This document shows, in pieces, positions 40,021 through 44,090 of a stretch of DNA of 64,000 nt. Position 1 is the first letter of the stretch. Each line of letters opens with the position of its first letter. This stretch comes from a virus. The notes below the pieces were generated by a model, which made no database searches, had not been told where the DNA came from, and saw only the letters and a program-made list of their open reading frames with translations. The stretch lies in the IMG/VR virus record IMGVR_UViG_3300032251_000001, positions 1 through 64,000 of that record; one strand, written 5' to 3'. The position numbers and the translations under genes were made by a program.

Positions 40021-40321
40021 AATCCTTCTCCTTTACACTATCATAATATGAATTATGGATATTTATAAAATCATCTTTAAGTAACCCATAAAAAGCTCCT
40101 CGTTGTTTATTTGTTAAGTAAATATTGTGACGACAGTCTAAATCAAATATGATTCTTTTACATACATTTTCATATCTATCATTATGTAATTTCTTATTTA
40201 TAGCAAACTTAGCTATTTTTAATATCTCTTCAGCTGAATATTTATATATAAACCTTGATGTAACAATTTTTAATTTACTAATTGGCATACTATATAAATC
40301 AACACACCTTAAATCTAACAT
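40007..40321 (-). CDS. hypothetical protein overlapping the end of hicA
   Basis: GGAGG RBS inside hicA; 104 aa. Confidence 0.7.
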   Translation of the reverse strand: MLDLRCVDLYSMPISKLKIVTSRFIYKYSAEEILKIAKFAINKKLHNDRYENVCKRIIFDLDCRHNIYLTNKQRGAFYGLLKDDFINIHNSYYDSVKEKDYEFK

Positions 40322-40530
40322 CTTTCCTCCAGTCCATGTTCTTTAAACATCCTTCGAATTAATGGTCTTGATACTTCACCAGCTCTATTAGGTAATATAA
40401 ATGCTTTTTTAATATTATCTTTCTTATATTTAACATGTGTACCTGTTTGACTAACTTTTTCATATCCATTTTGAGTTAGTATTTTAACAACTTCTCGGTA
40501 TTTATAACCTTTCATCCTATCACTTGCCAT
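40315..40530 (-). CDS. hicA: HicA-family mRNA interferase
   Basis: REVVKILTQNGYEKVSQTGTHVKYKK...ILP...GEVSRPLIRRMFKEHGL, with catalytic G(S/T)H His retained; GGAGG RBS. Confidence 0.85.
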   Translation of the reverse strand: MASDRMKGYKYREVVKILTQNGYEKVSQTGTHVKYKKDNIKKAFILPNRAGEVSRPLIRRMFKEHGLEERC

Positions 40531-41140: not shown

Positions 41141-41152
41141 TATTTTATTGTT
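41141..41152 (-). promoter_or_regulatory. late-type promoter AACA-N6-TA
   Basis: minus strand AACA ATAAAA TA. Confidence 0.5.
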
Positions 41153-41175: not shown

Positions 41176-41210
41176 AATAAAAAAGGTATACTAAATTAAT
41201 AGTATACCTT
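41176..41210 (-). terminator. terminator downstream of tRNA-Asn
   Basis: AAGGTATACTA-loop-TAGTATACCTT followed by a T-run on the minus strand. Confidence 0.8.
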
Positions 41211-41221
41211 ATAAAGATTAA

Positions 41222-41298
41222 TGGCTCTCCCAACAGGATTTGAACCTATGACACATCGGTTAACAGCCGATTGCTCTACCGAACTGAGCTATGGGAGA
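41222..41298 (-). tRNA. trnN: tRNA-Asn(GTT) with encoded CCA
   Basis: TCTCCCA TA GCTC AGTTCGGTA GAGC A ATCGG CTGTTAA CCGAT GTGTC ATAGG TTCAAAT CCTGT TGGGAGA G CCA; all stems pair, discriminator G. Confidence 0.97.
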
Positions 41299-41305
41299 AT
41301 ATATA

Positions 41306-41621
41306 ATGAATGTCCTTAGATACAATAGTTTCTAAGATATTGATAGGTGTACCTTTCACTCAATTAAAAGTAGAGTTACTTAGCTATCTCTTAGTACTTA
41401 ACTATACACTTAACGTTAAGAACTTTAATAGAACACTCTAGACGAGGTTACTTACTAAAGTAACTATAATATCTAAGGACATTCATAAAATAAATATACT
41501 TGGACTCTCATGTCCATAAAAACTCTCATGTTAAGTATATTATATGAAAGGATGTGATGAGGAAGCTCTTATAACTCTACATTAAATGTAAGTCCCTAAC
41601 TATCCAACATCACATCCCAAC
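41306..41621 (-). ncRNA. candidate multi-domain structured ncRNA upstream of tRNA-Asn
   Basis: three consecutive domains closed by perfect 10-, 9- and 17-bp inverted repeats; no ORF or RBS; late-type promoter 41621-41632. Confidence 0.6.
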
Positions 41622-41632
41622 AATTACTTGTT
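41621..41632 (-). promoter_or_regulatory. late-type promoter AACA-N6-TG
   Basis: minus strand AACA AGTAAT TG, with the predicted +1 a few nt before the first stem. Confidence 0.55.
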
Positions 41633-41658: not shown

Positions 41659-42231
41659 TTACTTCTTCACTCTGTCTGGATGATAATTCTTTACTTTACC
41701 ACGATATATAAATTGGAAATTTTTATTCGTTGCAAAGTCATAAGGACTAACCTTCCAAGCAGGTTTTTTGAATATCTTTATACCATTGGATTCAAATAAC
41801 CAAGTTACAAATTGAGAACAAAAGAACTCTTTATTACTTTTAGTTATTTGCTTACCTGTAAGATAACTAATTAATCCTTTAAAACTATATTTGTACTCAT
41901 CTCTATGAGAATACATAGCTTCAGCTTTTTGTTTCATACTTTGGAAGTGAACAATAGGTACATTAATTCTATATAATGAGAACGTAGCATCTGGTGCATA
42001 ATTCTCATATAAGTTTTCAATATTAATTCCACCATTCATATTGAAACCATACATATTATTTAAATTTTTATCAAATGATATTGATGCATGATTGTATGGT
42101 GTATTAGTTACATTAGTTATAACCTTAGCAACTCTAGATTTTGTATTAGATACAAGAACATATATTGGTTGCATATCTCTTACATCTTCATAAAAAACGT
42201 CTACACCAGATTCTAATAATAATCCAGTCAT
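41659..42231 (-). CDS. permuted papain-like amidase (YaeF/YiiX, C92 family)
   Basis: PYNHASISF (His) precedes FFCSQFV (Cys), then SPYDF; N-term MTGLLLES. Confidence 0.85.
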   Translation of the reverse strand: MTGLLLESGVDVFYEDVRDMQPIYVLVSNTKSRVAKVITNVTNTPYNHASISFDKNLNNMYGFNMNGGINIENLYENYAPDATFSLYRINVPIVHFQSMKQKAEAMYSHRDEYKYSFKGLISYLTGKQITKSNKEFFCSQFVTWLFESNGIKIFKKPAWKVSPYDFATNKNFQFIYRGKVKNYHPDRVKK

Positions 42232-44044: not shown

Positions 44045-44056
44045 TAATAGTATGTT
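44045..44056 (-). promoter_or_regulatory. late-type promoter AACA-N6-TA
   Basis: minus strand AACA TACTAT TA. Confidence 0.65.
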
Positions 44057-44090
44057 AAAAAAAAATAAGCACCTGTAAAGATGCTTATTT
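44054..44090 (-). terminator. intrinsic terminator
   Basis: AAATAAGCA-loop-TGCTTATTT with a T-run on the minus strand. Confidence 0.7.

Follow-up and report, generated by a model that had tools for sequence, protein, structure and literature searches.

A strongly folded gene-free stretch beside the sole tRNA gene of an AR9-like jumbo phage, a candidate tRNA-linked RNA

The DNA analysed here (the window) comprises positions 1 to 64,000 of an IMG/VR virus record of 135.8 kb, with a GC content of 29% and an estimated completeness of 53%; an identical copy of the stretch under study is carried by a 233-kb ENA contig. On the minus strand of the window, two intrinsic terminators (44090-44063 and 41210-41183) enclose a transcription unit of roughly 2.9 kb. 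The upstream one (44063..44090, minus; a 12-bp stem, then a T-run) lies behind a ParB-like gene, where it ends the preceding unit and marks the upstream operon boundary. It is followed, in this order, by a late promoter motif of the type used by phage AR9, three genes encoding proteins of 262, 325 and 190 aa, a structured gap, a tRNA gene and the second terminator (41183..41210, minus; an 11-bp perfect stem, then a T-run), which ends the unit. The late motif, AACATACTATTA (44045..44056, minus), precedes the endonuclease-like gene (262 aa) by 29 nt. It is high-scoring, belongs to the 35 gene-proximal instances from which the weight matrix described below was built, and is likely to be the main promoter of the unit. 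The last protein gene (41659..42231, minus; 190 aa), after which there is no terminator, weakly resembles the C92 permuted-papain amidase family. The label ‘amidase’, given to it in a preliminary description of the locus, has as its basis a sub-threshold Pfam C92 match (E = 0.003). Beyond the second terminator, the next late promoter motif, AACAATAAAATA (41141..41152, minus), starts the following unit 34-35 nt before a PC4-like gene. Elsewhere in this part of the window we identified a homolog of HicA-type toxins (40315-40530, minus; 71 aa; PHROG 353, E = 4e-12, and Pfam HicA_toxin on the ENA contig), which sits in a unit behind an early promoter at ~40824 and whose end is overlapped by the next ORF (104 aa).

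The tRNA gene encodes a tRNA-Asn(GTT) with its CCA (41222..41298, minus; covariance-model score of 67 bits) and is the sole tRNA gene in the 135.8-kb record. It is separated from the upstream ORF (41659-42231) by a gap of 360 nt, in which no minus-strand ORF of at least 30 aa is present, the best minus-strand mini-ORF being 14 aa long with, by eye, a poor SD. A hidden protein on the plus strand was considered and rejected, as the 43-aa ORF found there has no PHROG match. The preliminary description, according to which the gap lacks an ORF, the tRNA-Asn starts 7 nt after the last stem and a terminator follows the tRNA, holds in these points. Between 44045 and 41210 the search for terminators returned nothing but a weak 5-bp hairpin inside the second of the folded domains described below. 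As no terminator separates the three upstream genes from the stretch, it may be an operon spacer or a 3' UTR rather than a gene of its own. Furthermore, given the bracketing terminators and the strong promoter at 44056-44045, it is very likely that the stretch is transcribed late together with the tRNA-Asn, regardless of whether any internal motif fires.

By its sequence signatures, the source of the record is an uncultivated jumbo phage of the AR9/PBS1 type, an assignment that is based on a PC4-like protein match, an AR9-like early-promoter word and an enrichment of the AR9 late consensus. The PC4-like protein, encoded just downstream of the tRNA-Asn unit, is 53% identical to AR9 g093. The early-promoter word, TTTCAAATATATATTAT-N6-G, is found at many gene starts of the record. 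It is close to the AR9 word AAATATATATTAT-N6-G, extended by TTTCAA on its 5' side and by GA at the start site, and examples within the window lie at 770, 13151, 40824, 50234 and 59038. In AR9, the late promoter consensus is AACA-N6-T[A/G], the last base being the start site (PMC5312081). Within 120 nt upstream of genes in the record, we counted 45 matches to this consensus in sense orientation versus 13 in antisense orientation, and the phage thus uses late promoters of the AR9 type.

Three perfect inverted repeats had been noted in the gap, of 10 bp (41550-41559/41608-41617), 9 bp (41493-41501/41533-41541) and 17 bp (41306-41322/41470-41486), and all of them are indeed present. The 10-bp and 9-bp repeats are not rare on their own, with ~0.2 and ~0.5 expected in the gap by our own arithmetic. 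For a repeat of 17 bp, the expectation is ~0.03 genome-wide (again our own arithmetic, from 29% GC). This repeat ranks second-longest among the perfect inverted repeats of the 135.8-kb record. No other long repeat combines a complex sequence with a large loop; almost all of the remaining ones are intergenic hairpins of the terminator type with short loops. The 17-bp repeat is nested in a 34-nt repeat with 85% complementarity (41300-41333/41459-41492).

A comparison of the fold with shuffled sequence, as the preliminary description had proposed, showed that the stretch folds far better than chance: the 327-nt minus-strand RNA reaches -97.6 kcal/mol compared to -66.5 ± 4.3 kcal/mol for dinucleotide shuffles (z = -7.24), and 0 of 100 shuffles were as good. 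For the individual domains, we obtained z-scores of -4.3 (domain 1), -1.9 (domain 2) and -5.9 (domain 3). The excess of structure is therefore carried by domains 1 and 3, domain 2 not being significant alone.

Domain 1 (41549..41618, minus) is predicted to consist of an 11-bp closing stem (10 Watson-Crick pairs and one G-U pair) round a bulged hairpin, with a pair probability of 0.99. In domain 2 (41493..41541, minus), the 9-bp repeat forms a closing stem with one G-C pair, of which 8 bp are present in the minimum-energy fold (pair probability 0.77). This stem encloses two copies of ACAUGAGAGU, which present an identical AUGAGA loop twice. The inner hairpin of this domain (41501..41516, minus; 5 bp) has an AUGAGA loop, ends in a U-rich tail and resembles a weak attenuator or terminator. 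Domain 3 (41300..41492, minus) has a long closing duplex capping a three-way junction (pair probability 0.99), from which hairpins extend at 41461-41422, 41420-41397 and 41394-41332. The duplex comprises 18 bp (41486-41469/41323-41306) and a further 6 bp (41467-41462/41330-41325) with one mismatch in between, so that, as modelled, it would offer the near-perfect duplex of about two helical turns, at least 20 bp long, that is expected of an RNase III stem. The pair probabilities given are means for the closing stems, taken from the fold of the whole predicted precursor (41621-41178), in which all three domains form alongside the tRNA cloverleaf and the terminator.

We also compared the two strands. 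The plus strand folds at -84.6 kcal/mol versus -96.9 kcal/mol for the minus strand (z = -6.8 versus -7.2), and only 8 of the about 113 pairs in the leader are G-U pairs. Given this near-equal fold of the plus strand and the small number of G-U pairs, the strand asymmetry that would mark structure at the RNA level is weak. In addition, gene-free regions of the source genome and of its relatives often contain strong hairpins, and structure alone is therefore not specific.

Two other gene-free regions of the same genome, both outside the window, deserve mention in their own right. The region at 111448-112103 (656 nt) lies between two minus-strand genes, contains perfect hairpins of 11-13 bp, reaches z = -9 in 180-nt windows and carries minus-strand late-type motifs at 112077-112066 and 111879-111868; at E up to 1 Rfam returned nothing for it, and it has no similarity to the stretch studied here. 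The second, at 81463-81668 on the plus strand, is a 206-nt leader of the gene at 81669-81968 that folds at -61.6 kcal/mol in sense orientation versus -39.1 kcal/mol, with z = -6.1 for a 180-nt window. It ends in a terminator-like hairpin, matches no Rfam family and could be a cis-regulatory leader.

The preliminary description had also placed a late promoter of its own in front of the stretch. A candidate of this kind, AACAAGTAATTG (41621..41632, minus), does match AACA-N6-T[A/G], though only minimally, with G41621 as the predicted +1. To judge its context, we used a weight matrix built from the 35 gene-proximal instances in the source genome. The motif scores 5.1 bits (5.06), compared to a leave-one-out median of 11.4 and a 10th percentile of 6.2 for the gene-proximal instances, and 52% of the consensus matches inside coding regions score as high. 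By our own arithmetic, ~0.4 chance matches are expected in a gap of 360 nt. Thus, the match to the AR9 consensus at 41632-41621 stands, its context score being equalled by about half of the in-gene matches, and we treat an internal promoter at this position as a possibility, not as a finding. The promoter word AACAAGTAATTGTT (41619-41632) is palindromic, and for this reason there is also a match to the late consensus on the plus strand (41619-41630), which aims antisense into the upstream gene.

No RNA family had been recognised in the stretch, and the search of Rfam 15 agrees with this: with gathering scores and at E up to 10, the tRNA is the only match. The best matches other than the tRNA are at chance level (SNORD2 with 22 bits versus a threshold of 37, microRNA models with 16 bits), and as far as Rfam 15 includes them, 6S RNA, GOLLD, ROOL, T-box, phage pRNA, ribozymes and introns gave no match. 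A blastn search (word size 11) of 50,697 phage records returned matches confined to the tRNA part, and the 135.8-kb record holds no second copy of the stretch. Pattern scans of IMG/VR with the arms of domain 1, the arms of domain 3, the tRNA body, the apex of domain 1 and the twin AUGAGA hairpins returned nothing or two GC-rich chance matches. Scans of JGI metagenomes with the tRNA pattern and the arms of domain 3, and of 185,579 species genomes with the arms of domain 3, gave zero matches. In a look-up of sequencing runs, there was no RNA run among those listed for the stretch. Two gut DNA runs contained 4% of the sampled words, and nearly all of their contigs covered 41228-41296 only; these are tRNA-Asn look-alikes of other organisms, accompanied by a few short pieces of low identity on flanking bins.

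The neighbouring genes, for which homologs are available, allowed us to look at matching positions in related phages. The upstream gene has homologs with 44-51% identity, and in the four closest contigs a convergent gene follows it directly, with no tRNA; for the PC4-like gene, the closest relative is 64% identical. Three complete jumbo phages from IMG/VR share the upstream gene at 34-36% identity and have no tRNA anywhere in their records, indicating that the cassette is dispensable in the wider group. A DNA search of four IMG/VR jumbo relatives yielded no match to the stretch, and a covariance model of domain 3 picked up only short generic hairpins in them, as did single-sequence covariance models of domains 1 and 3 in the whole records of AR9, S6, PALS_2 and LPJP1. 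The conservation in related phages that the preliminary description had looked to was thus not observed, no homolog having been found in any collection searched. On these sequence comparisons the cassette is specific to one lineage, and we regard the stretch as an unproven, one-off candidate RNA rather than as a new RNA family.

The closest parallel comes from AR9 itself, a member of the same phage group, in which the sole tRNA is likewise a tRNA-Asn(GTT). Two late primary starts have been mapped for this tRNA, a very strong one at 208874, 31 nt upstream, and a weaker one at 207979, 926 nt upstream (Lavysh et al. 2017, PMC5312081, Table S3). The start at 207979 was assigned to the tRNA-Asn by the authors from dRNA-seq data, and the tRNA was scored as late, with a level far exceeding those of the other genes listed nearby (PMC5312081). 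We found that positions 207979-208468 of the AR9 genome (KU878088.1) are free of genes and unannotated over ~490 nt, contain no ORF of more than 45 aa and fold with z = -5.4. This stretch is 98.5-99.3% conserved in PBS1, Internexus and Goe21 and belongs to no Rfam family. Hence, in both phages a late motif of the form AACA-N6-TA/G is followed by a long, gene-free and structured stretch upstream of tRNA-Asn. However, the AR9 leader has no similarity to the stretch studied here at the level of sequence or covariance model, an ORF of 119 aa (g243) lies between it and the tRNA, and a much stronger promoter is located 31 nt before the AR9 tRNA, with none so near in the phage studied here. Moreover, the AR9 start site is experimental, whereas ours is predicted.

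In the Staphylococcus jumbo phages S6 and PALS_2, a tRNA-Asn stands alone in a gene-free gap of 873 nt, and in S6 its flanks fold at z = -6.5 and -5.9. Directly 3' of the S6 tRNA-Asn, we noticed helices resembling an acceptor and a T-arm, as in a decayed or odd tRNA, for which ARAGORN makes no call.

Structured RNAs that travel with phage tRNAs are known from other phages. The stable RNAs of T4 (species 1 and 2) are small structured RNAs that are co-transcribed with a tRNA operon and excised by host tRNA-processing enzymes; they differ from our candidate in being ~120-140 nt long, in originating from a multi-tRNA cluster and in belonging to a phage transcribed by the host RNA polymerase. GOLLD and ROOL measure roughly 600-800 nt, compared to ~320 nt for the stretch studied here. 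Both are large structured RNAs, often phage-borne and often located near tRNA genes (PMC5737381, bioRxiv 10.1101/2024.12.08.627333). In contrast to them, the stretch matches no Rfam family even when E is raised to 10, their conserved cores are missing from it, and no multimeric cage is implied.

In phage K, tRNA genes have two abundant long non-coding RNAs as neighbours, one of them transcribed from the tRNA promoter (PMC9241854). Like lnc001 and lnc002 of this phage of Firmicutes, which occupy gene-free gaps adjoining tRNA genes, our candidate is a gene-free stretch beside a tRNA in one terminator-bounded unit. On the other hand, the phage K RNAs are longer (635 and 1154 nt) and were shown by RNA-seq, and phage K belongs to another family and uses the host RNA polymerase; it is absent among the matches listed in the blastn search of phage records with the stretch. 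A further set of orphan RNAs, ncRNA001-004 of the jumbo phage PA5oct, ranges from 236 to 619 nt, with similarity only to one near-identical isolate (PMC7318152). These RNAs differ in having been found by RNA-seq and in not being described as tRNA-linked; their source, a Pseudomonas phage, relies on the RNA polymerase of its host. Taken together, the parallels from AR9, S6 and PALS_2, phage K and PA5oct indicate that a structured, lineage-specific RNA accompanying a phage tRNA is of a known kind.

The reading that we favour, and to which we give about an even chance, is that the stretch is a strongly folded non-coding spacer or 5' leader RNA, co-transcribed with the sole tRNA of the phage and freed by RNase P, with a duplex in domain 3 that is suited to protecting its 3' end or to being cut by RNase III. 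It would be transcribed late as the 3' part of the ~2.9-kb unit from the promoter at 44056-44045, perhaps also from the weak motif at 41632-41621. The host RNase P would then cut at 41298/41299 and free the tRNA-Asn, and such a cut at the 5' end of the tRNA necessarily frees the upstream stretch as well. The 3' end of the upstream fragment would lie 7 nt past the ~25-bp duplex of domain 3 (18 + 6 pairs, one mismatch), which should block 3' exonucleases. The same duplex would be long enough for RNase III, and a cut there would excise the 147-nt interior of domain 3. Depending on the promoter used, the product could be either a stabilised 3' end of the three-gene mRNA or a free, stable RNA of ~320 nt. 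The sequence shows the anatomy, the excess of structure, the boundaries of the unit and the use of AR9-type promoters in this genome, and from it we infer the transcription of the RNA, both cleavages, its stability and any function other than cis-acting processing or stabilisation.

An RNA of about the same extent could also be a product in its own right, as the preliminary description proposed: an independent stable late ncRNA of ~320 nt, transcribed from its own promoter at 41632-41621 and released from a tRNA precursor. It would act in trans, perhaps as a sponge or decoy for a host or phage factor. The AR9 late consensus placed 4 nt before domain 1, the tiling of the gap by three independently closed domains and the twin identical AUGAGA loops would suit such an RNA, and orphan abundant ncRNAs of 236-1154 nt do occur in PA5oct and beside the tRNAs of phage K. 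However, the context of the promoter scores no better than matches within genes, domain 2 is not significantly structured, neither an Rfam family nor a homolog was found in the collections searched, and no target, partner or conserved motif was found, and we consider this explanation unlikely. The structure might instead be a matter of the DNA, with the palindrome being left over from a small mobile element that had inverted terminal repeats, or from an inverted duplication, and the hairpins having no selected role as RNA. Indeed, the 181-nt module with its perfect 17-bp terminal inverted repeats resembles a miniature inverted-repeat element in size and shape, the two strands differ little in how well they fold, relatives have no cassette at the matching position, and the perfect Watson-Crick stems suggest a recent origin. 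Yet miniature inverted-repeat transposable elements are recognised by several copies and a target-site duplication, and here the module is present in a single copy in the 135.8-kb record, its arms occur nowhere else in IMG/VR, JGI metagenomes or the 185,579 species genomes, and its flanks show no visible target-site duplication. There is also no transposase, integrase or reverse transcriptase gene nearby, and the cumulative GC skew makes no origin-like turn at the stretch, which leaves an origin at the level of the DNA with a low probability in our view.

A further explanation views the stretch as a stack of hairpins that would pause, attenuate or terminate transcription by the phage RNA polymerase, tuning the read-through from the upstream genes to the tRNA. 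It draws on the weak terminator-like hairpin with a U-rich tail within domain 2, on the predominance of intergenic, terminator-type hairpins among the long perfect inverted repeats of this genome and on the second gene-free region, 111448-112103, which is equally packed with strong hairpins. Against it, domains 1 and 3 are not followed by U-runs, domain 3 is a long-range stem round 147 nt that is unlike any terminator in the genome, and the actual terminator is located downstream of the tRNA, so that we deem a stack of this kind very improbable. Several other identities were tried and rejected: a decayed tRNA array (no additional match to the tRNA model at E up to 10), a replication origin (GC skew without a turn, no iterons), a type III antitoxin (no tandem repeats), and a retron, integration site or guide RNA (no partner gene nearby).

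The features first noted in the stretch are real and statistically solid, but the claim of a new multi-domain ncRNA with its own promoter exceeds the evidence; what we describe is an orphan example of a structured RNA linked to a phage tRNA. As it is a single, unconserved sequence from an uncultivated phage, both our confidence and the reach of the conclusion are limited. A bolder version, in which the whole stretch or the 181-nt domain 3 excised by RNase III is a trans-acting stable late RNA of one AR9-like lineage with uracil-containing DNA, and in which the AR9 leader and the region at 111448-112103 are further, unrelated examples, appears to us quite a long shot. If it were true, it would mean that AR9-like phages habitually make abundant structured RNAs alongside their single tRNA-Asn.

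We believe that, if the RNA is real, it would enlarge by one new sequence the small group of phage RNAs associated with tRNA genes, which includes the lnc RNAs of phage K, the stable RNAs of T4, GOLLD and ROOL, and would extend this tRNA-linked pattern to the AR9/PBS1 group, whose members transcribe with their own RNA polymerases. Since AR9 is cultivable and has a mapped late start with a folded leader of ~490 nt, a structured late RNA linked to tRNA-Asn would be approachable in that phage.
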